Source: Nitrospira sp. (GTDB lineage Bacteria; Nitrospirota; Nitrospiria; Nitrospirales; Nitrospiraceae). From it: a DNA stretch of 64,000 nt. Below the pieces are notes generated by a model. It was given only the letters and a program-made list of their open reading frames with translations. It was not told the DNA's origin and did no database searches. Shown here piece by piece: positions 548 to 15,400 of the stretch. The first letter of the stretch is position 1. Each line of letters starts with the position of its first letter. The stretch is from the NCBI GenBank assembly GCA_013140455.1, contig JABFSU010000084.1, forward strand, positions 2,163 to 66,162. The letters are read 5' to 3'. Position numbers and translations under genes: made by a program.

Positions 548-1375
548 TTGGCGGAGAGGGAACAGCGTGCCGAGCCTAAAGGTGGTGCAGTGATTTTTCG
601 CGGTCCTGAAAGTCTTCAGTATCCGTCTCGCAAAGAATTTCAGCATCTGGCTGAAATCATGTACCAAGTCCGAGGAGTACAAACTCGCGATCAACTGCCT
701 TCCCTTGCCTCAGCTGTATCTCCTTTGATTCCGCACCAATTTGCTGCATGTGGTTTGTATAACACTCAGAAACGTGCCTTGCACGTCGCCTACACGTCCT
801 TTAACAAAGAACTCAACGAGCTATACGTTTCGCAAGGCTACGTCACAGACCCCTCTATCCAACTGCTCGATCGCACTCAGATTGGAACCGTTTCAAGTGA
901 AGACTCGCCGGAACTCACCATTCCAAGAGAAGTAACCAGTCTGAAGCTTGATTTCGGCGTCAAGACCTGCCTTTCGGTTGGCGTCCGTGGAGTCCTCGGC
1001 GCCTGTACATACTTTGCACTCAGCAATTTCGACCAACGCCAGATCTGGAAGCTTCGGAGCATGATGCAGATTCTGGCCCCGCATTTTCATCTGGCCTATA
1101 TGAGAGCGACGACATGGGCTCAGGGAACTCATGCATCGACCAAGCGGATAGATCTGACCGCGCGCGAAGAAGAAATTATGCGTTGGGTTGCGGAAGGCAA
1201 GACCAACTGGGAAATATCCATGATTCTGAAAGTGAGCCTGAACACCATTAAGTTTCACCTCAAGAACATCTATCAGAAGCTCGGAGGGGTGGAAAACCGC
1301 TGGTCGGCAGTCGCGCAATGGCAATATGCTTCCACAGAAATCCAGTTCCCCGACTCACCAGATAACGAGACATAG
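548..1375 (+). CDS. LuxR-family transcriptional regulator with a non-receiver N-terminal domain (a LuxR solo-like protein)
   Basis: The C-terminal HTH reads LTAREEEIMRWVAEGKTNWEISMILKVSLNTIKFHLKNIYQKLG. The roughly 190-aa N-terminal domain has no receiver signature. The start is uncertain: TTG 548 from the ORF track, GTG 590 after AAAGGTGG, or ATG 659. Confidence 0.75.
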   Translation: MAEREQRAEPKGGAVIFRGPESLQYPSRKEFQHLAEIMYQVRGVQTRDQLPSLASAVSPLIPHQFAACGLYNTQKRALHVAYTSFNKELNELYVSQGYVTDPSIQLLDRTQIGTVSSEDSPELTIPREVTSLKLDFGVKTCLSVGVRGVLGACTYFALSNFDQRQIWKLRSMMQILAPHFHLAYMRATTWAQGTHASTKRIDLTAREEEIMRWVAEGKTNWEISMILKVSLNTIKFHLKNIYQKLGGVENRWSAVAQWQYASTEIQFPDSPDNET

Positions 1376-1478
1376 TTCACCTCACACTCGGTTCATGTAG
1401 TACTACCCGCTCGGGAACGCTTCTCCAAGCCTTCGACAATCTCCCGTTTCCTCCCTATCGTCCCAACACCCCTCAGAT

Positions 1479-1553
1479 CACGTGTCCGATTGCAGACCGG
1501 TTGGCCCCTTCGTGTCTTTGCACGCGTGCTCATCTACCAAACTGGTCCACGTG
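1479..1553. promoter_or_regulatory. Cluster of three CACGTG-type palindromes upstream of the nitroreductase-like/KS/P450 operon
   Basis: The sites are CACGTG (1479-84), GCACGCGTGC (1520-29) and CCACGTGG (1547-54), all within 76 bp and 75-150 nt upstream of ATG 1628. Confidence 0.35.
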
Positions 1554-1627
1554 GGGGGCCTACCCATCCGGGTAGGTCCCTTCTTGTCGCACTTCCCCTA
1601 TCTTCTGCACCAACCAAGGAGGCGCCC

Positions 1628-2950
1628 ATGATCACCGCTGAATGTCAGATTGCTAAATCTGCTGCAGTACACACGTTGCTCGATCTCTTAGAGCAACGCA
1701 AGACACGCCGGTTCGGATGCGGGATGGAACTGCCCGGAGGGCCCCTCCGCTACCGAAGCACCATGCCTCCGATTCCTCTGAGCCAAGAAGAAATTCGCTA
1801 TCTCTTGTTCGCCGGCGTCGGCGAGACCGGGCGCCATCTGGCCGACATGCAATACGTCCGCCGGACAGGCCGCGAGGACGGTCAAGGAATGGCCATCATG
1901 AACTTCCAGGGCAGAACCGTGGCCAGCGCCTGTGCCGCCAATACAACCAAACTCTTCCTCACCGACGACGAAGGAGTCTATTTTGCGTCATCGGTCTCTC
2001 ATCCCGAGAGCGGAATTCCGCCCGAACTGGTGACGCTGCAGCAACGCCGGCTCGAGATTCCCCGTCGACTTCCCTACATGCTCTCGTTCAATCAGTGGTA
2101 CACCAACCGCCCCGGCACCCTCTACATGATCCCCGTCACGGAAGTGGCGCGGGTCTATATCAATCTCCTACTGGTTCTCCTGAGCGAAGAGTATGGCTAC
2201 TTTTTCGTTGATACCGACAACGGGAACGCCGGCTGCGGGCTGGATGCCTTCCGTCGCAGTCGCGGCGGGCATCTGCACGATGATCCTTCCACCAATCGAG
2301 TGATGACCCTTCGGGATCTCGACGCAGCGATCAACGATACGGCGCTCCAAGAACAAGGGTTGGTCTGCCAGAACCTGTTCTTGATGACCCAGGCGGTCGG
2401 CCTCGGCGGCGGCATCCAAAGCGTGGGCAGCGGGCGCCACCTGCTTGGCCTTGAGCCGCAGATATTTTCAGGCCTGGGATTTTCGTTTCAGCCATCGAGC
2501 GTGGCGGGAGTACGTTCGAACCCCGTCGGGATCGCGAATCTATGGGAAGGGCCGTGCCCGCCATTCACCTCTTCAATTGAAGAGGCCGTGCTCAGCCTTG
2601 TCGACTCAAAATTCGGGCTCGGCGGCATTTACACGACTCCCACAAGCCGGCCATGGATGAATCCCGATGGTGGATCGAAAATCGTACCGCACGAACAACG
2701 TACGATCGAGGCCGTGATTGAGTTCTGCAATTACGTCTATCGCACCTACGGGCGATTCCCGGCCCATGCCGATGCCTTCAAGACCGTCATTGCCTTTCAA
2801 GCCCATCACGTAGACGTCGGGTTCTACGACAAGTTCTATCCGAACGAATCAGTCCCTCAGGCACAACGGGATCACTTCGCCGCATGGCATCAGAGCCATC
2901 TTGATGAAGGCGCCGCCATATCGGCGATGCACGAGGAGGTGCTCTCATGA
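1628..2950 (+). CDS. Nitroreductase-superfamily (FMN oxidoreductase-like) protein, unusually large at about 440 aa
   Basis: ATG 1628 lies 5 nt after AAGGAGG (1616-1622), so the ORF-track start at 1490 is probably an upstream extension. The motifs RKTRRF and CQNLFLMTQAVGLGGGIQSVG resemble nitroreductase/SagB-type folds. The stop overlaps the next start (ATGA at 2947-2950). Confidence 0.6.
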   Translation: MITAECQIAKSAAVHTLLDLLEQRKTRRFGCGMELPGGPLRYRSTMPPIPLSQEEIRYLLFAGVGETGRHLADMQYVRRTGREDGQGMAIMNFQGRTVASACAANTTKLFLTDDEGVYFASSVSHPESGIPPELVTLQQRRLEIPRRLPYMLSFNQWYTNRPGTLYMIPVTEVARVYINLLLVLLSEEYGYFFVDTDNGNAGCGLDAFRRSRGGHLHDDPSTNRVMTLRDLDAAINDTALQEQGLVCQNLFLMTQAVGLGGGIQSVGSGRHLLGLEPQIFSGLGFSFQPSSVAGVRSNPVGIANLWEGPCPPFTSSIEEAVLSLVDSKFGLGGIYTTPTSRPWMNPDGGSKIVPHEQRTIEAVIEFCNYVYRTYGRFPAHADAFKTVIAFQAHHVDVGFYDKFYPNESVPQAQRDHFAAWHQSHLDEGAAISAMHEEVLS

Positions 2951-4302
2951 CACATCGTCGTCGTGTCGTTATTACCGGATTGGGGATCGTATCGCCGCTG
3001 GGCTGCGATCTGAGCATGTTTTGGCACCTGTTGAGCCGTGGCGAAAGCGGGATCAAGCCCATCACCAGCTTTGACACCTCTCCCTTCAACGCCTCGCTCG
3101 CCGGCGAAATCACGGATTTCGATCCGACCGATTTTATTCACCCCAAAAAAGCCCGGCGGATGGGTCGGGTTTCACAATTTGCCGTGGCATCGGCGCTGAT
3201 GGCCGGTCGAGATGCCGCGCTCGACCTGGACCAGGAGGACCGGGATCGTGTGGGCGTCTGCTTCGGCACATCGGTGGGCGGATTGAAGGAAGCCTTTGAA
3301 GCGCACGATTCGATGATCGCAAAACAATACAAACATACGAATCCCTTCACGATGACTACCACGTTCCCCAACGCCGTGTCGGCGGAAGTTTCCATCGCCC
3401 TGGGGACGCACGGCGAATGCGAAACCTACTCAATCGGCTGCTCCTCTACGGCGAACGCCATCGGGCGCGCGTACGATTTGATTCAGGGCCATGATGTCGA
3501 CATCGTCATCGCCGGCGGAGCCGAAGCCCCGCTGCATCCGACCATCTTTTCGGCAATGGATGCAGGCCGAACTCTGGCACCGGACCATGGCGGAAGCATC
3601 CGCAACCTTCCCCGCCCCTTCGACCAAACACGCTGCGGGATTGTCTTGGGAGAGGGCGCCGGATGCCTCATTCTTGAGGAGGCAGAGCATGCCGAGCGGC
3701 GCGGCGCACGGATCTACGCCGAGCTGGAAGGTTGGGCGTTTACCACGGACGCCTTCTCGATGGCGCGTCCCGAAGAAACCGGGAAAGAACATCGCCGCTC
3801 GATTGAGCGCGCGATCGCAGCGGCCCATTGGTTTCCAGAAGAGGTGGACTACATCAACGCCTGCGGACTGGGAACCGTTGAATTGGATCTGATTGAAACC
3901 TTGGCGATCAAAGCTGCGATGGGCTCCCAGGCCTATCGCCTCCCGATCAGTTCTTTTAAATCAGCCCTTGGACATGCGTTTGCGGCAAGCGGGGCCTTTC
4001 AACTGATCGGAACCGTTCTGGCGCTGCAACATCAGTTCATCCCTCCGACACTGCACCTGACACAGCCGGATCCTCAATGTGACCTGGACTACGTGGCATG
4101 CGTAGGACGGCCGCGCACGATGCAGCGGGCCTTGGTCAATAGTTTCGGCTTCGGCGGTAAGAACATTGTCCTTGCCGTATCGGGAGTAGACGTCGCCGCG
4201 TCCCAAGACAGACTGGTCCATGGTGGTGTCGGCGCGCTCTACCACGAGCCGATTGCGGCTCCGGCGTTGGCGAAGTCTCCGAGCACGGATCTGATTCAGT
4301 GA
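2947..4302 (+). CDS. Beta-ketoacyl synthase, FabF/KAS II-like, with an atypical active-site triad
   Basis: The N-terminus RRVVITGLGIVSPLG, active-site SIGCSST (Cys165), KSALGHAFAASGA (His343) and C-terminal NSFGFGGKN are KAS I/II hallmarks. The position of the first catalytic His reads INACGLGT (Cys306). The gene is translationally coupled to the upstream gene. Confidence 0.85.
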   Translation: MTHRRRVVITGLGIVSPLGCDLSMFWHLLSRGESGIKPITSFDTSPFNASLAGEITDFDPTDFIHPKKARRMGRVSQFAVASALMAGRDAALDLDQEDRDRVGVCFGTSVGGLKEAFEAHDSMIAKQYKHTNPFTMTTTFPNAVSAEVSIALGTHGECETYSIGCSSTANAIGRAYDLIQGHDVDIVIAGGAEAPLHPTIFSAMDAGRTLAPDHGGSIRNLPRPFDQTRCGIVLGEGAGCLILEEAEHAERRGARIYAELEGWAFTTDAFSMARPEETGKEHRRSIERAIAAAHWFPEEVDYINACGLGTVELDLIETLAIKAAMGSQAYRLPISSFKSALGHAFAASGAFQLIGTVLALQHQFIPPTLHLTQPDPQCDLDYVACVGRPRTMQRALVNSFGFGGKNIVLAVSGVDVAASQDRLVHGGVGALYHEPIAAPALAKSPSTDLIQ

Positions 4303-4369
4303 GTGAATGCAATCGACGTGCGCCCGTATTTTTGCGCGTCGCCCTCAGGATCATAGGGAGGATTGTAAA

Positions 4370-5575
4370 ATGAGCACGCTACCAATCACCGCAGACCAAC
4401 TGTCCACGCCGGACGTGATCGCCAATCCTTATCCTTGGTATCACGAGCTGCGCGAGCAATCGCCTCTGAACTATGAGTTTCTTCCAGCAGGAGCCGTCTC
4501 CGGCATGAATGAACCCGTGAAGGCCTGGGCCTTGATGAGGTATGCCGATGTGTACGGAGCCCTCCGGAACCATGAAACTTTCGCATCGAATCATTCGCTC
4601 GCGGGAAAAGTCGTTCCCCGTCTTGCGCTTATTCACGACGATCCTCCACGCCACACTCGTTTTCGCCACTTGGTCAACAAAGCGTTCACGCTGAAGCGGA
4701 TTGAGACACTGAAACCATGGATCACGACCGTGGTGAATGAGTTGGTCGACGAGATGGCGGCCTCGCAAGAAACCGAGTTCATGCAGGCCTACGCGATTCC
4801 TCTCCCTGTAAAGGTTATCGCGCGAATGCTCGGCATTCCAGGAGAGGACTACGTCAGATTCAAACTGTGGAGCGACACGTTCCTCGCCTTCAGCTCAATG
4901 ACCCCCGGAGAGCGCGCCAAGAGCAACCAGGAAATGATGGCGTATTTCGGCCAGATGGCTGCCGATCGACGAACACAGGCTGCGGAAGACCTCATTACCG
5001 CCCTGGTTGAAGCGAATGTCGATGGGGAGTCTCTTGCAGATGCTGAGATCATCGGTTTTTGCATGCTGGCCTTGATCGCCGGAAATGAAACGACCACCAA
5101 TCTGATCGGTAACATGCTCGGCATTCTGGTTGACCGCCCTGATCTCTGGCAGCAACTGCGGGCGGATCGAAGCCTGGTTGATAGAGTGATTGAAGAAACG
5201 CTCCGAATCGAAAGTCCATTCCAGCGGCTGTCCCGCATTGCGACTTGCGACACAGCGCTCTCCGGGGTCGCGATTCCACAAGGGTCCCTCGTGACCATCT
5301 ACTACGGCGCAGCGAACCGGGATCCCGCCGAGTTCCCCAATCCTGATGAATTCAGGCTGGACCGAGATTTACGCAACCACGTCGCCTTCGGAATGGGGAT
5401 TCACTACTGTCTGGGAGCGCCTCTCGCCCGAGCCGAAGCCTCCATTACGCTCAATACGCTCCTTGATCGCTTCCCGGTGATCGAACGAGGCCGCGAGCCG
5501 GCCCTTCGCCAAACAACGAGCCTGATGGTGTACGGCTATCAGCAATTGCCGCTCAATCTCAGAGCGTCGAATTAG
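4370..5575 (+). CDS. Cytochrome P450
   Basis: ATG 4370 follows GGGAGGA (4356-4362). It carries the I-helix motif LIAGNETTTN, the ExxR motif EETLRIESP and the heme-thiolate loop FGMGIHYCLGAPLA. Confidence 0.9.
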   Translation: MSTLPITADQLSTPDVIANPYPWYHELREQSPLNYEFLPAGAVSGMNEPVKAWALMRYADVYGALRNHETFASNHSLAGKVVPRLALIHDDPPRHTRFRHLVNKAFTLKRIETLKPWITTVVNELVDEMAASQETEFMQAYAIPLPVKVIARMLGIPGEDYVRFKLWSDTFLAFSSMTPGERAKSNQEMMAYFGQMAADRRTQAAEDLITALVEANVDGESLADAEIIGFCMLALIAGNETTTNLIGNMLGILVDRPDLWQQLRADRSLVDRVIEETLRIESPFQRLSRIATCDTALSGVAIPQGSLVTIYYGAANRDPAEFPNPDEFRLDRDLRNHVAFGMGIHYCLGAPLARAEASITLNTLLDRFPVIERGREPALRQTTSLMVYGYQQLPLNLRASN

Positions 5576-5615
5576 GACCACTGGACCTGTTTGTTTCGGA
5601 GAAACGAGGGCACAC

Positions 5616-6170
5616 ATGAAACACCACCCGGCAACCTCAGAGGCATGTATTCAATCTCTTGTGGCAGACGTATTTGGCGGGCTCTCAAGAGAAGAACTGC
5701 TGATGGCCTTATCCCTCATGCACCAGATTCTTGACGCGGACAGAAAGAGGGATGTGGAACACATCGTGACTTCACTGTCCAAGCTGCGCCGCGAGGCCGC
5801 CGGCTCCAAACTCTCGCCTCGGCACACTCCGAATGAGAGCCACAGGATGGCAACGCCGCCGGTACAGGGGAGTTATTCTCACCGTGTTGTGCGCTACTTC
5901 TTTTCCTGCCTCACGAAAATGCAAACGAGACTCGACGCCGAACCCAGGCACACTCATATTCCCAACAATACCTGCCATCTATCTCCCCGAGAGCTCACCG
6001 TCCTGCTATGGATGAAGGAAGGAAAGACCAACTGGGAGATCGCCCAGATCCTGGGGCTCAGTGAGCGGACCATTCGTTTTCACGTCGGCGGCATCTTCGA
6101 GAAGCTGGATGTCACGTCCCGCACGCAAGCAGTGGCCCGGGCATTGGGAGCAGGACTTATCGCCTCCTGA
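5616..6170 (+). CDS. LuxR-family transcriptional regulator (small, no receiver domain)
   Basis: The C-terminal HTH reads LSPRELTVLLWMKEGKTNWEIAQILGLSERTIRFHVGGIFEKLD. The roughly 120-aa N-terminal region has no recognisable domain. The gene starts 40 nt after the P450 stop. Confidence 0.8.
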   Translation: MKHHPATSEACIQSLVADVFGGLSREELLMALSLMHQILDADRKRDVEHIVTSLSKLRREAAGSKLSPRHTPNESHRMATPPVQGSYSHRVVRYFFSCLTKMQTRLDAEPRHTHIPNNTCHLSPRELTVLLWMKEGKTNWEIAQILGLSERTIRFHVGGIFEKLDVTSRTQAVARALGAGLIAS

Positions 6171-6298
6171 CGTGACTGCCTGATTGGGCAAACACGCGTG
6201 TCCGCTAAGAAAGGCCTTCGAGGTCTGCTCATCGCAGGCCTTGTTGAACCGGCTTTCGACCTTACCACTTAGACCATACCGGCCGGCCTTCCGCACAC

Positions 6299-6316
6299 CC
6301 TGGCGCATGCGCCAGG
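6299..6316. promoter_or_regulatory. Perfect 18-bp palindrome CCTGGCGCATGCGCCAGG between the second LuxR gene and the kinase gene
   Basis: The sequence is self-complementary over all 18 nt. It lies 129 nt after the LuxR stop and 105 nt before ATG 6421. Confidence 0.4.
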
Positions 6317-6420
6317 TGACGTGCCCCCTCCCAAACCTTCTATGATGACAACTAATTGTTCACCGCTCCTGCAGCGTAGGGGAGCCACCATGGCACTCAT
6401 CTCTTGCGAGGGATTTGAAA

Positions 6421-7224
6421 ATGGAGAAGGACTCCAAAGGGCTGCGTCTCATTCATGGTTCGGATCAACGAAGACCTGACATAGAACAGCCATCCCCCGT
6501 GTCTGGCTCTCGTATGAATCCGACCATGCGCCAGACGCCGCGCTCATCCGGCGACCTGATTATGTCGCTACGCGCAACGGAGGCCCGATTGAGCAGCCTC
6601 TTAGAGGATCGAAGCCGCATCAGCCGAGACCTCCACGACTCAGTCCTACAGTCGCTCTATGCCATCGGGCTCAGCCTGGAGACCTCCCACCGTACCAATA
6701 CTTCACCACAACCAGGAGCCGATCGCGCCTACAGCCATGCCGTGGATCAGCTCAATCGCTTGATTCACGAGGTGCGAGGCATCATCAAGGGGCTTGCGGA
6801 TGGATCGGTTCAGGACATGGACCTGTCTGAGGAACTCAGACAGTTGGCCGGCAGTTACGAGCAACTCAGTCATGTCACTATCACGCTCAGCCTGCAGCCG
6901 TCGGCACTCGACGTTCTCACCCGGGAAGAAGAGCAGGAAATTCTGAACATTGTGCGAGAGGCCTTGAGCAATTGCGTCCGCCATGCGCAGGCGACTCACG
7001 CCGAGGTGACGATCAGGACACACGGCAACCGAGTGCGTATCAGTATCTGCGACGACGGAAAGGGATTTGTTGAAACAGGCGCGCATCCCAAGGGATATGG
7101 CTTGATGAATATGGAAGCGCGGGCCAAGAAACTCGGCGGCAGGTTGCTGCTTCGCTCGAAGCCCGGCCAGGGCACTCGCCTTACCGCGGAATTTTTACTG
7201 GAACCGATTTTAGCGCCTGTATGA
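6421..7224 (+). CDS. Soluble NarL-class (HisKA_3) sensor histidine kinase without an obvious sensor domain
   Basis: ATG 6421 lies 7 nt after GAGGGA. It has the H-box ISRDLHDSVLQSLYAIGLSLE, the N-box ILNIVREALSNCVRHA and the G-boxes DDGKGF / GYGLMNMEARAKKLGG. I see no hydrophobic segments. Confidence 0.85.
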   Translation: MEKDSKGLRLIHGSDQRRPDIEQPSPVSGSRMNPTMRQTPRSSGDLIMSLRATEARLSSLLEDRSRISRDLHDSVLQSLYAIGLSLETSHRTNTSPQPGADRAYSHAVDQLNRLIHEVRGIIKGLADGSVQDMDLSEELRQLAGSYEQLSHVTITLSLQPSALDVLTREEEQEILNIVREALSNCVRHAQATHAEVTIRTHGNRVRISICDDGKGFVETGAHPKGYGLMNMEARAKKLGGRLLLRSKPGQGTRLTAEFLLEPILAPV

Positions 7225-7901
7225 AACCTGCACCCACGACACTTCTCATCGTCGATGACCACGAAGTCGTCCGGCAGGGTCTCCGAACACTCCTGGACCT
7301 TGAGCCGGATTTCCGGGTCATCGGTGAAGCCGCGTCGGTCGCGGAGGCCGTCACACAAACGGCACGTCTCCGACCAAATGTCGTGTTGCTCGATGTGAAA
7401 CTCTCCGACGGATCCGGGATCGCGGCCTGTCGCCGGCTTCTCGCAACCACGCCGGCCACCCGCGTCTTGATGCTGACCAGCTTTTCGGAGGAGGCCATGG
7501 TGGTCGAGGCCGTTCAAGGCGGGGCACACGGCTACGCACTCAAGGATGTCCGAGCCCAGGATCTGATTCAGGCTATTCGCACCGTCGCAAGCGGCCACGG
7601 CTACCTGGACCCGCGCGTGGCCCAACAGACATTGCACTGGATCCGCGATCGATCCCACCCGGCCTCCGGTCACTCCCCGGATCGCCTCACACGCCTTTCC
7701 CCGCAAGAGCGCGCCATTCTGCCCCTGCTCGCTGAAGGCAAAACCAACAAAGAAATTGCAGTCGATCTCCGCTTAAGCGATAAAACCGTCAAGAACTACC
7801 TCGCCAATATCTTCGACAAACTGCAAGTCAAACGGCGCACCGAAGCCGTGAGCTGGTATATCCGAACGACTCAGGCATCGTCGGAAGACTCCCGATTCTA
7901 G
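7221..7901 (+). CDS. NarL/FixJ-family response regulator (REC plus LuxR-type HTH)
   Basis: The start overlaps the kinase stop (ATGA). REC motifs are LLIVDDHEVV, VVLLDVKLSDGSG and GYALKD. The HTH reads LSPQERAILPLLAEGKTNKEIAVDLRLSDKTVKNYLANIFDKL. Confidence 0.9.
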   Translation: MKPAPTTLLIVDDHEVVRQGLRTLLDLEPDFRVIGEAASVAEAVTQTARLRPNVVLLDVKLSDGSGIAACRRLLATTPATRVLMLTSFSEEAMVVEAVQGGAHGYALKDVRAQDLIQAIRTVASGHGYLDPRVAQQTLHWIRDRSHPASGHSPDRLTRLSPQERAILPLLAEGKTNKEIAVDLRLSDKTVKNYLANIFDKLQVKRRTEAVSWYIRTTQASSEDSRF

Positions 7902-8068
7902 GTCTTGAGCATTCCCCCTTCTTTGGCTCCCATGCCCTCTAGAAATTCAGGGGTCTCAGGCCCTATGCTAGACACTCCGCCCTGGCCGTCGCAGGGATTG
8001 GATTGAATCACCCCGCAGGCGGACAGGTGGCCACCCCGGCTGACCAGCGAACCGAGGCACGAAGCGTT

Positions 8069-11000
8069 ATGCACCGTCCCCGCCCTTCCTCGCTGACTGA
8101 AACCGCGACGCAATCCAGCGACGACATCACGCCGGAACAGGCCGCGCTGTCGACCTCTTCCCCTGCCCATCGTGCCGTGGAAGCGGCGCAAATCGGCACA
8201 TGGGAATGGCGGCTTGCCACCGGACGGGTCGAGTGGTCCCCGCAGGCCGATGCCATTTTCGGGCTCACACCAGGCGATTTTTCCGGCACATTCGAAGGAT
8301 TCTTGAGCCTCGTGCATCCATCAGATCGCCCACAGTTACAGGCGGCGGTTCAGACCGCGATCGAAACCCATCAGCCCTACCACCTCGACCATCGGATCAT
8401 CACTCCGGACGGAATCATCCGATGGGTCTCCTGTCGAGGCCGCGCGGTGCTGGACTCAGACGGCCACGTTGCAGGCATGGCGGGAACGACCGAAGATATC
8501 ACCCGCCGGAAAGAAACCGAGCTGGCCCTGATTGATCTACAAGAAACCCTGGAACAACGAGTGCGTGAACGTACCGCCGGACTTGAACAAGCCGTGCGGG
8601 ATCTTCAAGAGGAAATCGGGCGGCGACGCCAAACTGAGGCCGCGCTGAAAGCCAGCGAACAACGGTATCACGCCCTCTACGAACAGAACCCCACGATGTA
8701 CTTCACCCTGACGCCTGACGGCACCGTCCTCTCCGTCAACCGATTCGGGGCAGAAGAATTGGGCTATCGCGAGAACGAATTAGTCGGGCAATCGGTGCTC
8801 GCCGTGTTCCAAGCCGCGGATCACCATACCGTCCTGGAACAACTGATCGTCTGCTCACAGAGCCCGGGGCGGACCTTCGACTGGGAAATCCAGAAAGTAC
8901 GGAAGGGCGGACAACGCCTCTGGGTCAAGGAACGGGCGCGGGCCATCACCGGACCGGACGGAAGCCCGATCATTCTCATCGTCTGTGAAGACATCACGGA
9001 ACAACGGCAGACGCAAGAGCTCATCCGGAATCGGGATCAGCAATTACAAGCCACAATGCAGTTCCTCCATACCCTGGTGCAGGAGTCCCCCCTTCCTATT
9101 GTCAGTCTGGATGCCGAGGCACGGGTCACCAGCTGGAACCAGGCCGCCACCAAACTGTTCGGCTGGACGGAAGAGGAGGTCCTGGGCCGGGAACTTCCGT
9201 ATGTCCCTCCCGGACAGGAAACAGAAGCCGATGCCCTCTGGAACCACGGCATGCACCACGAGATCCGTGGCCCGCTTTCGCTCCGCCGGCAGCGGAAAGA
9301 CGGGAAACTCCTGGACCTGTTGCTGTGGCCGGTGTTCGTCGAAGATCCTGCCGGCCAACTGTCGACGGCGGTCGGCCTCTATGTCGATCAGTCGGACCTT
9401 CGTCAGGCGGAAGATGCGCGCCTACACAGTGAAGAACGGCTCCGGTCCTTCTTGAATGCACTTGACGACCTGGCGTTTGAATTCGATAATCAGGGCACCT
9501 ATTTAAATGTGTGGACCAGGAACGAGGATATCCTCCTATTGCCGAAGGAGGAGATCGTCGGGAAAACACTGGCCGACCTACACGGAAAAGAAGCTGGCGA
9601 GCGGTACCGTCACATCCTCACCCGGGTGCTCAATTCAGGACAACCGGAAGCCATCGAGTATTCACTGACGATTCATGGGCAGCTTCGGCACTTCTCCGCA
9701 ATCCTCAGCCGTATTCCGGCGAGTGCCAGCACCCCGTCGACCGTGGCCTGCGTCGTCCGCGACATCACGGAGCAAAAACGCTCGGCGGAAGCGCTGCATC
9801 TGAGCAAGCACCATTTAAAGAGCATCATCGAAACATCGCCGGAATGCGTCAAGCTGGTGGCCGCTGACGGGACACTGCTCCAGATGAACACAGCCGGGCT
9901 GGCCATGATCGAGGCCGACGATATACGAAACGTACTCGGCCAATGTGTCTATCCGATTGTCGCCGAACCTCATCGCGAGGCCTTTCGTGCCATGAATGAA
10001 CGGGTCTGCCGGGGGCAGAAAGAATCTCTGGAATTTGAGGTCGTGGGCTTGCGGGGGACTCGCCGCTGGATGGAGACCCACGCCGTACCGTTACGTAATC
10101 CCGCCGACGGAGCCATGGTTCAGCTGGCCATCACTCGCGACATCACCGACCGCAAACAAGCCGAACTGGCGCTTCGTCTCAGCGAAGAACGCTTCGAAAT
10201 TGCCTTCCGGTCGAGTCCGCATCCCGTCGTGATTACCGAGTTGGCCACGGGACGCTGCATCGAAGTCAACGACACGGCGTTGCAGCTCTTTGGGTTCCAG
10301 CGCCACGAGGCGGTCGGGCACACGACCATCGCCATTGAGCTGTGGCCGAAGCCGGACGATCGGAGACGATTTGTCACGCAACTCCTGGCGAACGGAACTC
10401 TCCGAGGAGTGGAATTCACCTTCCAAACCAAAGACCGTCGCTTGCGGCACTGCCTGGTCTCGAGTGAATTGATCGAACTCAACGGTACGCGATGCATCCT
10501 CACCGTGGGCACGGATGTCACAGAAAAGAAAGAGGCTGAAGCCGCTCTGCGGGAGAGCGAGGAACGCTGGCAACGCTTCGTCGCCGACGCACCGGTTGGG
10601 CTGGTCGTCGTCGATGCCGACAAACACATCCTGAGCGCCAACAACGCCTTTTGCACCCTCACGGGCTATTCCGAGCAGGAAGTGATCAATAGCACCTACG
10701 CGCTCTACACCCATCCCGATGACCTGCCCAAGAATCTGCAGTTGACCGAGGAGTTTTTCTCAGGGCAGCGGGACGGGTATACCTACGAGAAACGGTATGT
10801 CCGAAAAAGCGGCGATATCATCTGGGTATCCATACGTGCGAGCCGTCTTACTGTCCACGGATATGGTGCACCGCTGTTGCTCGCAGTCGTGGAGGATATT
10901 ACCGACCGCAAACAGGCCCTCGCGGATCGGGAACGGATCAGCCAAGACCTGCACGACAACATTCTCCAGTCTCTCTACGCCGTCGGCATGCAGCTCGAAG

Positions 11001-11539
11001 CGGGAAAATTGTTGGTGGGGAAAGCCCCTCGCAAATCCAAGCAGCACGTCACCCAAGCCATCCGGCAGTTGAACCATCTCGTCTTGGAAGTCCGGCAGTT
11101 CATCACCGACCTCACCCACCGCACAGCGCCGACGCTGGATTTCTGTGTGGCCCTGAATCAACTCGTCGCCTCCTGCTCATCGGAAACTCGTACCACGCCC
11201 GCGCTGGACCTCGATCCGACCGCACTCACCGCCGTCACCCCGGCGATCGGCGAGCAGTTGCTGAACATTGCGCGGGAAGCCTTGAGCAACAGTGTCCGTC
11301 ATGCCGGCGCGACACACCGTTCTGTCAGCCTCACAAAAGCCGACCGTGCCATCCGGTTGTGCGTGGCCGATGACGGCAGAGGCTTTGACCCCGGCCGCAC
11401 ACGCCGCCGCGGAAACGGACTGGCCAATATGGCCGCACGGGCCAGAACCATCGGCGGGCAGTTCACCCTCGACAGTGCGCCGGACCGCGGCACCTCGATC
11501 ACGATCGACGTCCCCACAGGAGATCCGCATGCCTGCTAA
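8069..11539 (+). CDS. Multi-PAS sensor histidine kinase, HisKA_3 class
   Basis: There are at least six PAS/PAC-like modules, each ended by a DIT(E/D)xK boundary. The H-box is ISQDLHDNILQSLYAVGMQLE. The ATPase motifs are LLNIAREALSNSVRHA, DDGRGF and GNGLANMAARARTIGG. The start is uncertain: ATG 8069, or TTG 8003 as in the ORF track. Confidence 0.85.
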   Translation: MHRPRPSSLTETATQSSDDITPEQAALSTSSPAHRAVEAAQIGTWEWRLATGRVEWSPQADAIFGLTPGDFSGTFEGFLSLVHPSDRPQLQAAVQTAIETHQPYHLDHRIITPDGIIRWVSCRGRAVLDSDGHVAGMAGTTEDITRRKETELALIDLQETLEQRVRERTAGLEQAVRDLQEEIGRRRQTEAALKASEQRYHALYEQNPTMYFTLTPDGTVLSVNRFGAEELGYRENELVGQSVLAVFQAADHHTVLEQLIVCSQSPGRTFDWEIQKVRKGGQRLWVKERARAITGPDGSPIILIVCEDITEQRQTQELIRNRDQQLQATMQFLHTLVQESPLPIVSLDAEARVTSWNQAATKLFGWTEEEVLGRELPYVPPGQETEADALWNHGMHHEIRGPLSLRRQRKDGKLLDLLLWPVFVEDPAGQLSTAVGLYVDQSDLRQAEDARLHSEERLRSFLNALDDLAFEFDNQGTYLNVWTRNEDILLLPKEEIVGKTLADLHGKEAGERYRHILTRVLNSGQPEAIEYSLTIHGQLRHFSAILSRIPASASTPSTVACVVRDITEQKRSAEALHLSKHHLKSIIETSPECVKLVAADGTLLQMNTAGLAMIEADDIRNVLGQCVYPIVAEPHREAFRAMNERVCRGQKESLEFEVVGLRGTRRWMETHAVPLRNPADGAMVQLAITRDITDRKQAELALRLSEERFEIAFRSSPHPVVITELATGRCIEVNDTALQLFGFQRHEAVGHTTIAIELWPKPDDRRRFVTQLLANGTLRGVEFTFQTKDRRLRHCLVSSELIELNGTRCILTVGTDVTEKKEAEAALRESEERWQRFVADAPVGLVVVDADKHILSANNAFCTLTGYSEQEVINSTYALYTHPDDLPKNLQLTEEFFSGQRDGYTYEKRYVRKSGDIIWVSIRASRLTVHGYGAPLLLAVVEDITDRKQALADRERISQDLHDNILQSLYAVGMQLEAGKLLVGKAPRKSKQHVTQAIRQLNHLVLEVRQFITDLTHRTAPTLDFCVALNQLVASCSSETRTTPALDLDPTALTAVTPAIGEQLLNIAREALSNSVRHAGATHRSVSLTKADRAIRLCVADDGRGFDPGRTRRRGNGLANMAARARTIGGQFTLDSAPDRGTSITIDVPTGDPHAC

Positions 11540-12221
11540 GACAAAATCCTCACCCATTCGTTTACTGATCGTCGACGACCATGAGGTGGTTCGGATCGGG
11601 CTCGGCGCCGTACTCGATCTGACGCCGGGCATGAAAGTCGTCGGCCAAGCCCGGAGTAAGGCCGATGCCATCACGCAATGCCGTCGCACAAAGGCGGACG
11701 TCGTGCTGCTCGACATCCGCCTGCCGGACGGCAGCGGGATCGATGCCGCCCGCGAAATTCTATCGGCACACCCCAACATCCGCATCCTGTTCCTGACCAG
11801 CTTCGCCGACGAACACACCGTCCTTGAAGCGATCCTGTCCGGCGCCCAGGGCTATGTGCTGAAGGACATCGCCGCCGCCGCGCTGATCCGCGCCATCAAG
11901 ACTGTCGCTGCCGGACAACCCTTGATCGACCCGCGCCTGGCCCCCCATACGCTCTCGTGGATGAAGCACCTGTCGGCCGGCCAGACTCCTGCCAAGCGAT
12001 CACTCCTCTCCCCCCAAGAGCAACGCATCCTGCCGCATGTCGCCGGAGGCCTCACCAACAAAGAGATCGCGCAGCGCCTGGATCTGAGTGAGAAGACCGT
12101 GAAAAATTATCTGGCGAACATCTACTCCAAGCTCCAGATCGGACGGCGGTCTCAGGTCGCCGCCATGTACGCCGGGAGTTTCAAGGGCTCCCTCCCTCCG
12201 CTGGCCTCCAAATCCTCGTAA
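11529..12221 (+). CDS. NarL/FixJ-family response regulator, paralog of the gene at 7221-7901
   Basis: ATG 11529 gives MPAKTKSSPIRLLIVDDHEVV and overlaps the kinase 3' end by 11 nt. It carries VVLLDIRLPDGSG and the HTH LSPQEQRILPHVAGGLTNKEIAQRLDLSEKTVKNYLANIYSKL. The ORF-track start at 11292 is an in-frame extension inside the kinase gene. Confidence 0.9.
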   Translation: MPAKTKSSPIRLLIVDDHEVVRIGLGAVLDLTPGMKVVGQARSKADAITQCRRTKADVVLLDIRLPDGSGIDAAREILSAHPNIRILFLTSFADEHTVLEAILSGAQGYVLKDIAAAALIRAIKTVAAGQPLIDPRLAPHTLSWMKHLSAGQTPAKRSLLSPQEQRILPHVAGGLTNKEIAQRLDLSEKTVKNYLANIYSKLQIGRRSQVAAMYAGSFKGSLPPLASKSS

Positions 12222-12428
12222 GACCGGGCCTACCGGCACGCGCCCGCCTTAAGATTCTTCGGGAAACACCGATACAGAGCGGTCACAATCTGACAAGACA
12301 TCCGGCCCTCTCTTCCCTGCGATCCTCACTAGCCCGCGCGGTGGTTACCGCATCAAGTTTGTCCTGCTTCGATCCGAAAAAGATGTGGGTCTCCGCAGCA
12401 ATACGTCGGTCTCGGCCCCGAGGACGCC

Positions 12429-15400
12429 ATGTTCGATGTCTCCAAATTTCGGCTCCAGGACATGACCGCCTGCAGTGCGGCCTTGCGACAACTCGGCGCC
12501 GGAGCCTCATCCATCGACATGGCGGCAGACCGCATTACGCGATACCTCTATACCACCCTGACGACCGGCCCGGATGAAGATCCGGCCTGCGTCCTCGTGC
12601 GGTTGTTCAAAACTCACCCGTACGGCCGGCTCAGCCCCGAACTGCAAGCGCTGGTCGATGCCCGCCTTGGACATACGCCTGCCGATCCCGACATGAAGTG
12701 CTTGACCCTCCTTGCCAGCACGGGGGCCGTCGAAGGCTGGAACAACCCCGCTCAATCCAGCCGCTTCCGCGCGATCCCCCTGAGCGGGCCGGACGCCCTG
12801 GCCGAACTGCCGATGTTTTCGCAGCTCTTCGCCCAGTTTCACATTGATCTGCCGTTTCTCGAACAGGCCGGATCTTCCCTCTTGATGGATCAATACGCCA
12901 CCACCTTCAATACCTTCTACGTCCCGCAGGCGCTCGACAGCCCCTACGTTCCGGGCCAGACCGAATTCGTCGTGCCGTTCGGCGTGCAATCCGTGGTCGG
13001 CTATGGAGGCCTGTTGCCGACCGGAGACATGTTTGCGGTGATCCTCTTTACGAACGTGCCGATCTCCAGGGACACCGCCGACCTCTTTAAGACATTCGCC
13101 CTCTCGACCAAACTGACGCTCGCGCCGTTCGACCATGCACAACTGATCGCGCCGGCGCCGCCACAGCCCCAGCAACCCGGCCCGACCGAGCCTGACGACA
13201 CACTTGCCTTTCTGAAGCACCGGGTCGCAACGCTCGAATCCATTTTGGCCGTCCAAGAGCAGGCCGTCCAGCAGCAGTCGAGCCGCCTGGAAGCCAGTCT
13301 CGCGGATTCTCTCCGGCATGCCGAAAACCTACAGGCGCAAAGCCTGCGTTTTGAAACGCTCTCAGCGACCTCGCCCGTCGGAATTTTTCAAACCGACGCT
13401 GACGGTCAATGTCTCTATACCAATAGCGCCTGGCAGGAAATCGCCGGACGTTCCCTGACAGACTGCCTCGGAAACGGCTGGCGCCAGGCCGTCGCTGAAG
13501 AGGACCGCGCGGAAGTACTCTGCCAGTGGCAGGAAACGGTCCGACAGGGCAGGGATTGCGACGTAGAGTTCCGCATGCGGCGGCCTGACGGGACGATCCG
13601 GTGGGTCCACAGCCGGGCGCATCCGTTGCGGAACGACAGGGGAGAGACCGTCGGCCACGTCGGCACCACGGAAGACATCACCGAACGCAAGCGGGCGGAA
13701 GATGCGGTGACTCGGAGCCGCGACATGCTGAAGTTATTTGTCGAACACACACCAGCCGCGGTCGCGATGCTGGACAGAGATCTCCGCTACGTGGCGGTCA
13801 GCACACGCTGGCTACGGGATTACCGCCTTGGCGACCAGGACATCATCGGGAAACGTCACTACGACCTCTTCCCCGAAATCAACGCCATGCAGGAGTGGCA
13901 AGCCATTCATCAACGCTGTTTGGCCGGAGCGGTGGAGCAGAGTGAAGAAGATCATTTCGTCCGTGCCGACAAATCCGACGACTGGCTTCGATGGGAAGTG
14001 CGCCCCTGGCAGGACGGCACGGGAGCGATCGGCGGCATCATCATGTTTACGGAGGTCATTACCGAGCGCAAGCGGGCGGAAGAGGCGCTCCGTGAGAGCG
14101 AAACCCGGCTGCGGGAAGCCCAGGCTATGGTGCACCTCGGCAATTGGGAACTGGATCTGGCGAACGACCGGCTGCTGTGGTCGGACGAAATCTTTCGGAT
14201 CTTCGAGATCGACCAGGCGCAGTTCAGCGCCTCCTATGAAGCATTTCTCAACGCCGTCCATCCCGACGACCGGGCCCCTGTGAATGAGGCCTACAGGCGG
14301 TCGGTGCAAAACCGCACCCCCTATGCGATCGTCCATCGGCTGCTGATGCCGGATGGACGAATCAAGTATGTGCAGGAACGCGGTGAAACGTCCTACGATG
14401 GCAAGGGGCGCCCACTACGCTCTGTGGGGACGGTTCAGGACATCACGGAACGACGGGAAGATCAGCTGCAGCTGCAACACTCCCAGGCATTGCTGAACGC
14501 AGTGTTCGACCACCTCCCCAATATGGTGTTTGTGAAGGATGCCAAGACTCTGCGCTTCGTGGAATTCAATAAAGCGGGCGAGCGCCTTACCGGCTTTTCG
14601 CGTGAGGAATTGCTGGGGAAATCGGATTATGATTTCTTTCCCCAAGAAGAGGCCGATTTCTTTACCGGCAAAGACCGCGCCGTCCTGGCCAGTGGCTCCA
14701 TGCTGGACATTCCCGAGGAAGAGATCAAGACAAAGCACCGGGGCATCCGCATCCTCCAGACCAAGAAACTCCCGCTGTACGATGCCTACGGCACGCCGCA
14801 GTACCTCTTGGGCATTTCCGAAGACATCACCGATCGGAAAGCCGCCGAAGTACAATTCAAACAGGTATTCGAGTCGAGTTACGTCGGAATGATGATGGTG
14901 GCGGACGACGGACGGATCACTCTGGCGAACCCCCGGATCGAACAGACATTCGGCTATCGCCGCGACGAACTGATCGGACAACCGGTGGAGATCCTTCTTC
15001 CGGAGCGCTTCCGAACGACCCATCATAGTCAACGGATCTCGTTCATGGCCTCAGGTGCGTCCCGACCGATGGCCGAGGGCCGAGAACTCCACGGATGCCG
15101 CAAGGATGGAGGGGAGTTTCCCGTTGAGATCGGGCTGACTCCCGTCAATACTCCGCAAGGACGCCAGGTCCTCGCCTCGATCACCGATATCACGGAACGT
15201 AAGCAGAACGACGCCGCTCGCTTCAGGCTGCAGCAGGCCATCGAATATGCCCAAGACGGCATGGCCCTGCTCGACGACACCGGCCAATACATCTATATGA
15301 ACCGGGCCCACGCCTCAATATTCGGCTACACCGTTGACGACCTGCTCGGCAAGAGCTGGACATCGCTATACCCCGCTGAATGGGCTGCGATGATCGAGCA

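Follow-up and report, generated by a model that had tools for sequence, protein, structure and literature searches.

A LuxR-type regulator beside a ketosynthase–flavoenzyme operon in Nitrospira, with a possible non-homoserine-lactone signal or lipid as its product

In Photorhabdus, two LuxR-type receptors with substituted AHL-contacting residues stand next to a ketosynthase-type enzyme rather than LuxI: PluR beside the photopyrone synthase PpyS, and PauR beside DarABC, which makes dialkylresorcinols. Each receptor detects an acyl-derived signal that is not an AHL. The locus described here has the same layout, and its regulator, LuxR1, likewise carries substitutions of AHL-contacting residues; from its sequence the same logic can be predicted, and the analogy, drawn already in the original prediction, appears reasonable. 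There are also differences: PpyS and DarB are KAS III (FabH-like) enzymes, whereas the ketosynthase (KS) considered here is of the KAS II (FabF-like) type with a Cys-Cys-His site, its partner is a nitroreductase-fold flavoenzyme (ORF2), no ACP gene is present, and the host belongs to the phylum Nitrospirota.

Nitrospira are nitrite-oxidising bacteria. AHL quorum sensing has been described in the genus (N. moscoviensis aubI/aubR, NjpI, NspI/NspR1; PMC8553950, PMC5767232), and the lux box of NspR1, ACCTGGCGGTTCCGCCAGGT, has been validated experimentally (PMC8553950). This AHL system occupies the same chromosomal neighbourhood as the locus analysed here.

Gene content and distribution

We analysed a 64-kb stretch of DNA (hereafter the window) from a Nitrospira closely related to MAG S2bin.15. 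The five genes previously proposed, in the order LuxR, ORF2, KS, P450, LuxR, are all present as ORFs (table 1). The suggested translational coupling of ORF2 and KS is indeed seen in the overlap of the KS ATG with the ORF2 stop codon (ATGA, 2947-2950), and the gaps of 67 nt (KS to P450) and 40 nt (P450 to LuxR2) are correct. The NarL-type two-component genes expected downstream are a HisKA_3 kinase and a response regulator, beyond which lie more PAS kinases and regulators. A tblastn search across the whole 64-kb window detected no homologue of LuxI or of ACP (best E = 3.7), no second KS occurs within it, and no KR or DH genes lie near KS. The absence of an ACP, a thioesterase and an exporter from the cluster counts against its reading as a signal synthase.

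Table 1. Coordinates of the genes and predicted regulatory elements in the window.
Feature	Position	Strand	Description
LuxR1	548..1375	+	LuxR-family; divergent autoinducer-binding-like N-terminal domain and GerE helix-turn-helix
Box A	1558..1577	.	20-bp lux-box-like dyad GCCTACCC-ATCC-GGGTAGGT; predicted LuxR1 operator
Predicted -10 hexamer TATCTT	1599..1604	+	ORF2 operon promoter
Shine-Dalgarno AAGGAGG	1616..1622	+	Of ORF2; read from sequence
ORF2	1628..2950	+	440-aa nitroreductase-superfamily (FMN-type) oxidoreductase; His/Asp-rich C-terminal extension
KS	2947..4302	+	FabF-derived; Cys165-Cys306-His343 active site and Lys338; translationally coupled to ORF2
P450	4370..5575	+	Class I cytochrome P450 (CYP107/109-like); PF00067; same operon; putative lineage-specific tailoring enzyme
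LuxR2	5616..6170	+	Truncated NmuR-type AHL receptor; helix-turn-helix and short N-terminal helix, without ligand-binding core
Box B	6298..6317	.	CCCTGGCG-CATG-CGCCAGGT; Nitrospira AHL-type lux box, probably left after luxI loss
Predicted -10 hexamer TATGAT	6341..6346	+	Kinase/regulator operon; 23 nt after Box B
HisKA_3 histidine kinase, small	6415..7224	+	Pfam HisKA_3 and HATPase_c; predicted Box B target
NarL-type response regulator	7221..7901	+	Pfam Response_reg and GerE; overlaps kinase stop codon

A synteny scan returned 69 loci from species-representative genomes. The core LuxR1–ORF2–KS is present in all of the approximately 65 Nitrospira loci with enough flanking sequence, an arrangement repeated in dozens of species and thus more than chance. 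Outside the genus, a small clade related to Sulfurirhabdus has the core too, and a betaproteobacterial contig carries the same module near a LuxR gene, its KS being 86% identical to that of Sulfurirhabdus autotrophica. The trio of nitroreductase, KS and P450, envisaged as a unit, holds only in part: ORF2 and KS are always co-localised, with a LuxR-family gene always upstream, but the P450 is accessory rather than core. It follows KS in the window's clade only; lineage I lacks it, and N. moscoviensis-type genomes have instead an unrelated, divergently transcribed P450 (515 aa in N. moscoviensis) to which that of the window is not orthologous. By lineage, three unrelated oxidative enzymes adjoin the core, namely the two P450 types and a vanadium-haloperoxidase-like gene. 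As judged by sequence, the two P450s have been recruited in separate lineages, both under Box A.

The missing LuxI, correctly noted for the window, is a lineage-limited feature: luxI/luxR genes lie immediately after KS in N. moscoviensis and a few other species (L003-5/L062, L065) and upstream in one locus (L017), but most module loci, including all lineage I loci in the set, have no luxI in their 7-kb flanks. The position of luxI/luxR after KS in relatives suggests that the window holds a decayed AHL locus beside a conserved module. In N. moscoviensis, this module coexists with a working AHL system and may therefore have a role other than signal synthesis.

The enzymes of the operon

KS shares the thiolase fold of FabF (KAS II) over its full length, with approximately 40% identity to bacterial FabFs. 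It matches PF00109 and PF02801 and exceeds the cut-off of NF005589 (421.7 against 387), but falls below that of the fabF equivalog TIGR03150 (427 against 494). Of the conserved FabF residues, KS retains the gating Phe (NSFGFGG), the Lys, the nucleophilic Cys and the second His. In every KS orthologue, however, Cys takes the place of the first catalytic His (H303 of E. coli FabF, HGT motif), HGT of B. subtilis FabF aligning with CGL, and GFGGHN has become GFGGKN. The Cys-Cys-Lys-His pattern was found in all 69 KS orthologues scored at all four sites, and a sharp boundary, with identity of at most 44%, separates them from canonical NAHGT FabFs. Moreover, unlike FabF, KS lies outside a fab operon and under a LuxR-type promoter. 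The lost His, the TIGR03150 score and the lack of ACP, KR and DH genes nearby all agree with the earlier view that this is not a fab operon. In N. moscoviensis, KS is not the sole fabF-like gene, a separate fabF (NITMOv2_0661) lying elsewhere and a separate fabH being present as well (PMC6606698 supplement).

No Pfam, NCBIfam or PDB sequence match was obtained for ORF2. Of the Pfam assignments expected for the cluster, those of KS, of the P450 and of both LuxR proteins (GerE) were recovered, but not PF00881 for ORF2, a family matched by 6 of 49 distant ORF2 relatives. The nitroreductase fold itself was confirmed by structure prediction: Foldseek searches with the AF2 model of ORF2 (pLDDT 91.8, pTM 0.91; 72-sequence alignment) retrieved FMN nitroreductases first and then the FMN-dependent azoline oxidases BmdC, ThcOx and McbC, with probability 1.0, a value reached also by the uncharacterised nitroreductases 3hoi, 8cqs and 3hj9. 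ORF2 has, as does the superfamily, an N-terminal R-x-[ST]-x-R-type motif and a QN..L...A.GLGG motif; an N-terminal R-K-T-R-R-F is conserved among its homologues, which begin at the same Met, and the family profile matches FRP and NfsA at QN..LAA.A.GLGG. It departs from the superfamily in its lack of a PF00881 match, its length, a C-terminal extension of about 130 aa with invariant His/Asp, and its pairing with KS. The wider ORF2 family (at most 42% identity) is found elsewhere without KS or LuxR, and the family is thus not signal-specific.

The closest PDB relatives of the P450 are bacterial CYP109, PikC and TamI types. At its longest the ORF would begin at 4307, but the lengths of 400-401 aa annotated for orthologues favour a start at 4370. 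In N. moscoviensis, the ORF2, KS and P450 orthologues are expressed at 2.1-3.0 log2 above the median, and the luxI/luxR homologues (annotated aubI/aubR) in the same range (PMC6606698 supplement).

The two regulators and their boxes

What had been described as an unknown ligand-type domain in LuxR1 turned out to be a divergent autoinducer-binding domain: the orthologue profile aligns full-length with the AHL receptors CviR, RhlR, SdiA, LasR and TraR (E 1e-21 to 2e-9), although in Pfam searches GerE (3e-18) is accompanied only by a weak Autoind_bind match (23.4 bits against a cut-off of 23). As orthologues start at MIFRGPES, the true start is probably GTG 590. AHL-pocket residues Tyr72, Asp81 and Pro82 (RhlR numbering) are retained, so that AHL binding is still possible, whereas Trp68 has given way to variable residues and Trp96 to an invariant Ser; replaced Trp residues are likewise found in known non-AHL LuxR solos. 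The best full-length NCBIfam match is EpsA (TIGR03020), an XrtB/PEP-CTERM-associated LuxR-family regulator, with 96.5 bits over residues 29-257. This score is below the 170-bit cut-off and, in contrast to EpsA, no PEP-CTERM or exopolysaccharide genes occur among the genes flanking the locus.

The sequences support a lux-box-type promoter as the probable head of the ORF2 operon. Box A, a palindrome with the consensus RCCTACCC-N4-GGGTAGGT, occurs as a single copy per locus in 73 loci, always upstream of ORF2, with its 16 half-site positions almost invariant and the central four variable; the window has one copy against 0.11 expected. In 66/66 unique loci, Box A is followed after 21-22 nt by a TANNNT -10 hexamer; in the window, this puts the Box A centre near -42.5. 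A second -10 on the opposite side is present in all 20 loci with a divergent P450, compared with 5 of 25 without one. Box A deviates in two loci only (L027, L068), which are also the sole two with substitutions in the LuxR1 recognition helix (VSLNTxKFHLKN to MSLNTVKTHLKN), a coincidence that makes LuxR1 the likely binder. The betaproteobacterial locus (L080) yielded no palindrome. Box A has the 20-bp dyad design and the ACCT/AGGT ends of the validated Nitrospira lux box, but its inner half-site bases are ACCC/GGGT, not GGCG/CGCC, and it is paired with LuxR1, and with ORF2-KS in place of luxI. Its dyad symmetry extends past the 20-bp core in lineage-specific sequence, more than a simple operator would need: the flanks form on average 3.04 of six Watson-Crick pairs against 1.96 after permutation (0/2000 permutations reach the observed value), and the N. 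moscoviensis element is a perfect 44-nt palindrome.

LuxR2 can no longer be regarded as a second regulator bracketing the cluster, as it is a truncated NmuR-type receptor with a different box of its own. It matches GerE only in Pfam; its C-terminal 73 aa, with the helix-turn-helix, are 66% identical to the AHL-receptor homologue of N. moscoviensis, while the N-terminal match is faint and the AHL-binding core is missing. Its ORF is uninterrupted in 15 distinct sequences, drawn from several Nitrospira lineages, and encodes a conserved N-terminal motif. N-terminally truncated LuxR of Vibrio fischeri (LuxR-deltaN) is a ligand-independent activator. Such engineered constitutive fragments resemble LuxR2 in keeping the DNA-binding domain without most of the autoinducer-binding domain, but LuxR2, known from sequence, is natural and retains a conserved N-terminal helix.

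The half-sites of Box B differ from those of the validated NspR1 box by one base (C for the first A). Where luxI is present, Box B sits between luxI (on the minus strand) and the kinase gene (on the plus strand), whose downstream position is conserved, and the box is confined to loci with LuxRb or LuxR2, the one exception being a contig (L016) whose sequence begins only a short way upstream of it. In 12 of 17 unique loci, a -10-like TANNNT (mostly TATGAT) follows Box B in the direction of the kinase gene at a distance of 21-23 nt. NITMOv2_0515, the kinase orthologue of N. moscoviensis, ranks 16th in expression among the genes of that organism (PMC6606698 supplement).

Possible roles of the locus

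The best explanation of the locus as a whole may be two LuxR-type circuits side by side, the product of the first being the ligand of LuxR1, a reading whose probability we put only just short of even. We are considerably confident in the regulatory architecture, and regard the signal nature of the product as tentative, somewhat below an even chance. In the genus-wide circuit 1, LuxR1, a full-length divergent homologue of autoinducer receptors, would bind Box A as a class-II-type activator of ORF2-KS-P450, probably with read-through into LuxR2, although Box A could also be a repressor site. The operon would yield a hydrophobic, fatty-acyl-derived small molecule. KS could still be acylated on Cys165; as Cys306 replaces the His for malonyl decarboxylation, a non-canonical acyl transfer or condensation is probable. 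ORF2, as an FMN enzyme of the nitroreductase/azoline-oxidase type, would oxidise or reduce the product, which the lineage-specific oxygenase (the P450 in the window) may tailor, and ORF2-KS would thus fill the place of luxI in a classical LuxI/LuxR autoinduction loop, with a product that is most likely a non-AHL ligand of LuxR1. Circuit 2 would be the AHL system (luxI, receptor, Box B) of genomes of the N. moscoviensis type, decayed in the window by the loss of luxI and the trimming of the receptor to LuxR2, which would presumably occupy Box B in ligand-free form and switch on the kinase/regulator pair next to it.

With an identical architecture, LuxR1 might control the operon while sensing foreign AHLs or an unknown cue, the product being an output (such as a surfactant, an antimicrobial, a lipid linked to biofilms or a modification of membrane lipids) rather than a signal. 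We consider this a serious possibility, with perhaps a third of the probability on its side. The AHL-pocket Tyr, Asp and Pro that LuxR1 retains, the EpsA match, EpsA being a regulator of exopolysaccharide genes, and accessory oxygenases that differ by lineage, as in secondary-metabolite clusters, are all compatible with it, and Kop et al. (2025; PMC12342949) raised the possibility that, in lineage I genomes lacking luxI, LuxR homologues detect AHLs made by other organisms. However, LuxR1 lacks both Trp residues of the homoserine-lactone contact, one being exchanged for an invariant Ser, the strict genus-wide pairing of one regulator, one box and one operon mirrors the luxR/lux box/luxI topology, and the single Box A of each 15-kb locus, as of the entire 64-kb window, fits a dedicated loop.

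P450s are known to oxidise AHLs. This, the adjacency of luxI/luxR to the module in some genomes and their similar expression in N. moscoviensis would suit an accessory of the AHL system, with ORF2-KS supplying or modifying the LuxI acyl chain, or modifying or inactivating AHLs; the lack of a nearby luxI in the window and most other module loci and the module's own regulator and box, distinct from the AHL box, make this improbable. Still less probable is that Box A is an RNA/DNA hairpin (a LuxR1 terminator or a 5'-UTR stem-loop) instead of an operator: its palindrome often exceeds 20 bp, with complementary lineage-specific flanks, and many unrelated metagenome matches to its pattern resemble hairpins with GNRA or UUCG loops, but the spacing to the -10 is fixed, on both sides in divergent loci, Box A covaries with the LuxR1 recognition helix, its G-U-type pairs have no consistent strand bias, and no T-run follows it in the window. 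Finally, despite the strong FabF-like similarity and public annotations as beta-ketoacyl-ACP synthase or fabF, we find it scarcely credible that KS is just another FabF paralogue, elongating fatty acids amid unrelated neighbours, given the Cys in place of the first catalytic His, the sub-threshold TIGR03150 score, the coupling to a flavoenzyme gene under a lux-type promoter, and the separate fabF and fabH of N. moscoviensis.

The original prediction is thus partly supported. As a LuxR-type regulator lies beside a KS–flavoenzyme operon in every examined Nitrospira genome, the product of this operon may be an unknown non-homoserine-lactone signal or lipid.

Gene content and distribution of the locus

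The five co-directional genes of the original prediction are all present, as judged from the ORF list and translations, with the 3' end of uvrC as their upstream neighbour, and the proposed coupling of the ketosynthase gene (KS) to ORF2, which encodes a 440-aa protein, is borne out by the overlap of the two genes. The expected NarL-type two-component genes indeed follow downstream, and no LuxI, ACP or second ketosynthase was found in the 64-kb window, as had been claimed for LuxI and ACP. The domain assignments fared less evenly: HMM searches recovered PF00196, PF00109/PF02801 and PF00067, but PF00881 did not match ORF2. The true start of LuxR1, the regulator upstream of ORF2, is likely GTG 590, since its orthologues begin (MIFRGPES) at the equivalent position; the start assigned previously is thus probably about 42 nt too early.

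Genes and predicted operators of the locus (positions in the window)
Feature	Position	Strand	Remarks
LuxR1	548-1375	+	longest ORF, start TTG 548
Box A (predicted operator)	1558-1577		20-bp dyad RCCTACCC-N4-GGGTAGGT, upstream of ORF2
ORF2	1628-2950	+	preceded by AAGGAGG at 1616-1622
KS	2947-4302	+	ATG overlapping the ORF2 stop codon
P450	4370-5575	+	start backed by orthologue gene calls of 400-401 aa
LuxR2	5616-6170	+	from ORF list and translations
Box B (AHL-type lux box)	6298-6317		CCCTGGCGCATGCGCCAGGT; NspR1 half-sites with one mismatch at the first base
HisKA_3 kinase	6415-7224	+	downstream of the five genes
NarL-type regulator	7221-7901	+	downstream; followed by further PAS kinases and regulators

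Farther downstream (8003-17216 and the region of 19886-21325) the window encodes two very large multi-PAS histidine kinases of 1178 and 1595 aa, the second being a hybrid with two receiver domains, as well as more NarL-type regulators, a patatin-like phospholipase and several ORFs of 220-670 aa without a Pfam match.

Close homologues of ORF2 all belong to Nitrospira, that of the metagenome-assembled genome Nitrospira sp. S2bin.15 being 99% identical to the window protein. A scan of one genome per GTDB species yielded 69 loci, whose neighbouring genes were mapped by tblastn. The order LuxR1, ORF2, KS occurs in every locus with enough flanking sequence, in lineage I (N. defluvii) as well as in lineage II (N. 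moscoviensis). As to the question whether a nitroreductase-KS-P450 trio is syntenic next to LuxR genes, the enzyme pair and the upstream LuxR gene are, but the P450 varies by lineage. In the clade of the window a P450 of about 400 aa follows KS, usually succeeded by LuxR2 (the small second LuxR gene) and the kinase/regulator pair; N. moscoviensis-type genomes carry a different, 515-aa P450 gene, oriented divergently between LuxR1 and ORF2; and lineage I loci are devoid of a P450. The two P450 types share only 27% identity over 198 residues and thus represent independent recruitments. N. moscoviensis and a few other species possess a full-length AHL receptor gene and luxI directly after KS; among related species, those with luxI beside the module are a minority. 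In N. moscoviensis this arrangement is the AHL locus already described in print (PMC6606698, PMC5767232). We found no mention of the ORF2/KS pair in the literature examined on Nitrospira AHL systems, and nothing relevant in that on nitroreductases combined with a ketosynthase and LuxR or on Cys-substituted KAS II sites.

Outside Nitrospira, one contig (L080) has the ORF2/KS pair in the vicinity of genes for a LuxR protein and a vanadium-haloperoxidase-like protein; its KS shares 86% identity with the counterpart from the betaproteobacterium Sulfurirhabdus autotrophica. The pair is followed there (9205-10632) by a gene for a 142-aa protein and the haloperoxidase-like gene (VCPO_2nd/DUF6851), without a P450, while an AhpC/TSA-like gene and a canonical-looking LuxR gene lie on the upstream side; no palindromes were found in this locus. 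More distant relatives of ORF2 (at most 42% identity) reside in unrelated contexts with no KS or LuxR seen, and the wider family gives no functional clue past 'oxidoreductase'.

Published expression data for N. moscoviensis place the ORF2, KS and P450 orthologues 2.1-3.0 log2 units above the median, with the luxI and luxR homologues at similar levels (PMC6606698 supplement). The orthologue of the small HisKA_3 kinase, NITMOv2_0515, is the 16th most highly expressed gene in continuous culture, 5.6 log2 units above the median and far above the rest of the locus (PMC6606698 supplement); this kinase has no obvious sensor domain.

The enzymes of the module

The ORF2 sequence itself gave no match in Pfam, NCBIfam or PDB. 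PF00881 is matched by 6 of 49 distant family members (best E 4.5e-5), the window protein not being among them, and the family profile matches FRP and NfsA (E 9e-4) over a single motif, QN..LAA.A.GLGG. A first AlphaFold2 model built from Nitrospira sequences only reached a pLDDT of 65 and gave marginal Foldseek matches; with a 72-sequence alignment the values rose to pLDDT 91.8 and pTM 0.91, and every Foldseek match with E < 0.001 was a nitroreductase-fold protein. The best-ranked were FMN nitroreductases (3hoi, 8cqs, 3hj9; E 1e-5, probability 1.0), ahead of the azoline oxidases BmdC and ThcOx, with McbC behind these; target-normalised TM-scores reached 0.64. The alpha+beta nitroreductase fold proposed for this protein is therefore upheld by the structure prediction. 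Conserved motifs are R24-K-T-R-R-F29, which we take to resemble the FMN-phosphate motif of NfsA-type enzymes, and QN..LM.QA.GLGGG; at the level of these motifs, FMN binding and a homodimeric active site are predicted. Invariant His and Asp residues occur in the last ~130 residues. Several of them cluster at about residues 380-440 (window 2767-2950; H380, D382, H393, H394, D396, H416 and H421), several of these positions are nearly invariant across the wider family of 1400 representatives, and the cluster might constitute a metal or second cofactor site.

KS has full-length ketoacyl-synthase domains (PF00109, 2.7e-42; PF02801, 2.3e-32) and B. subtilis FabF as its best PDB match (2.8e-97). Its score against the curated fabF equivalog TIGR03150 is 427.4, below the cut-off of 493.75, while that against the looser subfamily model NF005589 (421.7) exceeds the cut-off of 387. 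Aligned with B. subtilis FabF, KS retains the Cys nucleophile along with the Lys and the second His, but the first His is replaced by Cys, so that the site reads Cys165-Cys306-His343 instead of the Cys-His-His triad; the replaced residue is the His of the HGT motif (H303 of E. coli FabF). Every one of the 69 orthologues that were scored at all four sites, the betaproteobacterial one (55% identical) among them, has Cys-Cys-Lys-His, with NAHGT changed to NACGL. In a search of 5.8 billion proteins, matches of at least 50% identity whose motif was located carry NACGLGT, apart from two with SACGLGT and one with NACGIGT, and the next ones, at 44% identity or less, are canonical FabFs with NAHGT(S/G)T. 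The first catalytic His of KAS I/II enzymes is required for decarboxylation of malonyl-ACP, and its replacement by Cys makes ordinary chain elongation by KS unlikely. Separate fabF (NITMOv2_0661) and fabH (NITMOv2_0711) genes exist in N. moscoviensis, so KS is not the only FabF there; together with the lack of ACP and fab genes in the window, this agrees with the original view that the genes are not a fab operon. No FabH-like gene is present in the locus.

The P450 (PF00067, 3.4e-38) shows the heme-thiolate motif FxxGxxxCxG as FGMGIHYCLG and ExxR as EETLR, and its closest PDB relatives are of the CYP109/107 type.

Regulators and their predicted operators

LuxR1 has a GerE/LuxR helix-turn-helix (PF00196, 3e-18), a borderline score for the autoinducer-binding domain PF03472 (23.4 bits against a cut-off of 23) and a full-length but sub-threshold match to EpsA (NCBIfam). 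A profile of its orthologues matches the structurally solved AHL receptors CviR, RhlR, SdiA, LasR, QscR and TraR over residues 12-233 (E 1e-21 to 2e-9). The full set of AHL-contact residues (TraR W57, Y61, D70, P71 and W85) is not preserved: in RhlR numbering, LuxR1 keeps Y72, D81 and P82, but W68 is variably L, F, C or H and W96 is invariably Ser. In AHL receptors, both Trp residues are contacts of the homoserine lactone. No cognate luxI adjoins LuxR1 in the window.

Box A occurs once per locus in 73 loci, always before ORF2, with almost invariant half-sites and a variable centre. A TANNNT hexamer follows exactly 21-22 nt later in 66 of 66 unique loci, a spacing that puts the centre of the box near a predicted -42.5, the classical lux-box position. 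A second hexamer is found at the same distance on the other side in 20/20 loci with the divergent P450, as opposed to 5/25 loci without a divergent gene, which suggests that one Box A serves both promoters and that both P450 types share the ORF2-KS regulon. The only two loci with a deviant Box A (ACTACCCC..GGGTGAGT) are also the only two with a changed LuxR1 recognition helix (MSLNTVKTHLKN, elsewhere VSLNT(I/V)KFHLKN), and from this regulator-operator covariation LuxR1 is likely to bind Box A.

The sole other Box A-like match in the window lies at 50527-50544 (CGTACCCTCTGGGGTACG, two mismatches), and a metagenome scan returned mostly unrelated matches (chance, hairpins, terminators) that defined no regulon. 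An unrelated low-GC (46%) metagenome contig (L143) carries the same ACCTACCC-N4-GGGTAGGT dyad at 5012-5031, ~50-85 nt upstream of a luxI homologue that has luxR in convergent orientation. This copy could be a hairpin, or else a lux box with matching specificity from a different phylum. The dyad symmetry of Box A often extends beyond the 20-bp core into flanks that are lineage-specific yet complementary (window 1546-1589), amounting in N. moscoviensis to a perfect 44-nt palindrome (L028, 6859-6902). Flanks form on average 3.04 of 6 Watson-Crick pairs versus 1.96 in permutations, none of 2000 attaining as high a mean. Such symmetry goes beyond what a simple operator model explains and might stem from a wider protein footprint, from cruciform formation or from hairpin-templated mutation.

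LuxR2 (PF00196, 4.7e-21) has the GerE domain only, with no autoinducer-binding domain detected. It is 66% identical to the AHL receptor over the helix-turn-helix, has a faint N-terminal remnant, and its ORF is intact and conserved across 15 distinct sequences. The validated Nitrospira lux box, that of NspR1 (ACCTGGCGGTTCCGCCAGGT), equals Box A in length and in its ACCT/AGGT ends but differs in the inner bases (PMC8553950). In the window, Box B precedes a TATGAT hexamer by 23 nt and the kinase gene by ~100 nt; across loci the distance to the -10-like hexamer (TATGAT in most) is 21-23 nt. It sits between luxI and the kinase gene in luxI-positive species and is restricted to loci with an AHL receptor or LuxR2, save for one whose contig starts just upstream of the box. 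The truncation of LuxR2 and the retention of Box B suggest that the window holds a decayed AHL circuit, with luxI lost, the receptor trimmed and the box kept. In an 80%-identity relative (L007, 14112-14890) the receptor downstream of the P450 is split into two called ORFs (137 aa with Autoind_bind, 98 aa with GerE), luxI is missing and Box B is perfect; the split reflects either a circuit caught midway in its decay or a frameshift in the assembly.

A possible signalling role

Comparison of the loci gives good support to two predicted architectures: LuxR1 acting at Box A on ORF2-KS plus an oxygenase, and LuxR2 or an AHL receptor acting at Box B on the kinase/regulator pair. The chemistry and biological role of the module are inferred. 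We favour the reading that the ORF2-KS product would be a fatty-acyl-derived small molecule serving as the ligand of LuxR1, because ORF2-KS occupies the place of luxI in a classical loop, LuxR1 lacks the lactone-contacting Trp residues, regulator, box and operon are paired one to one across the genus, and the added oxygenases differ between lineages, as signal variants would lead one to expect. In the main rival reading the two enzymes and their regulation are the same, but the product would be an output and LuxR1 would sense something else. That ORF2-KS is an accessory of the AHL system is unlikely, as most sampled species show no luxI near the module. A housekeeping FabF is contradicted by specific tests (Cys for His, the score below cut-off, the separate fabF), and we reject the RNA-hairpin reading of Box A, since the box keeps a constant distance to the -10 hexamer, on one side or on both, and covaries with the LuxR1 recognition helix.

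LuxR solos with ketosynthase-type synthases are known in Photorhabdus (PpyS/PluR, DarABC/PauR), as are AHL systems in Nitrospira; PpyS and DarB, however, are of the KAS III type, whereas the Nitrospira KS is of the KAS II type rather than a homologue of these. Returning to the product as LuxR1 ligand, we tentatively suggest, as something possible rather than probable, that ORF2 and the Cys-Cys-His KS represent an unrecognised type of autoinducer synthase with LuxR1 and Box A as cognate receptor and operator, forming a private non-AHL quorum-sensing channel in every Nitrospira, the luxI-less lineage I organisms that dominate wastewater plants among them, with P450- or haloperoxidase-made signal 'dialects' by lineage.

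What appears to be new is the genus-wide LuxR1-ORF2-KS module, a KAS II of the Cys-Cys-His type that is coupled to a nitroreductase-fold partner, Box A together with its precise promoter spacing, and the decay series seen in the neighbouring AHL circuit. A FabF descendant in which Cys invariably replaces the His of decarboxylation, and which is coupled to an azoline-oxidase-like flavoenzyme, points to chemistry undescribed for KAS II, and the window offers a natural decay series in which luxI was lost, the receptor became a DNA-binding stub and the lux box was kept before a two-component pair. In soils, waters and treatment plants, nitrite oxidation and complete ammonia oxidation are mainly the work of Nitrospira, whose cell-cell signalling is, to our knowledge, known only via AHL systems, which are absent from most genomes analysed. 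Should the product prove to be the LuxR1 ligand, the module would represent a new signal class. Kop et al. 2025 (PMC12342949) expressly left open which input the LuxR homologues of lineage I genomes without luxI respond to. For that question the locus offers a testable candidate, with a genus-wide regulator, a defined operator and promoter, and a two-enzyme operon at the position of luxI.
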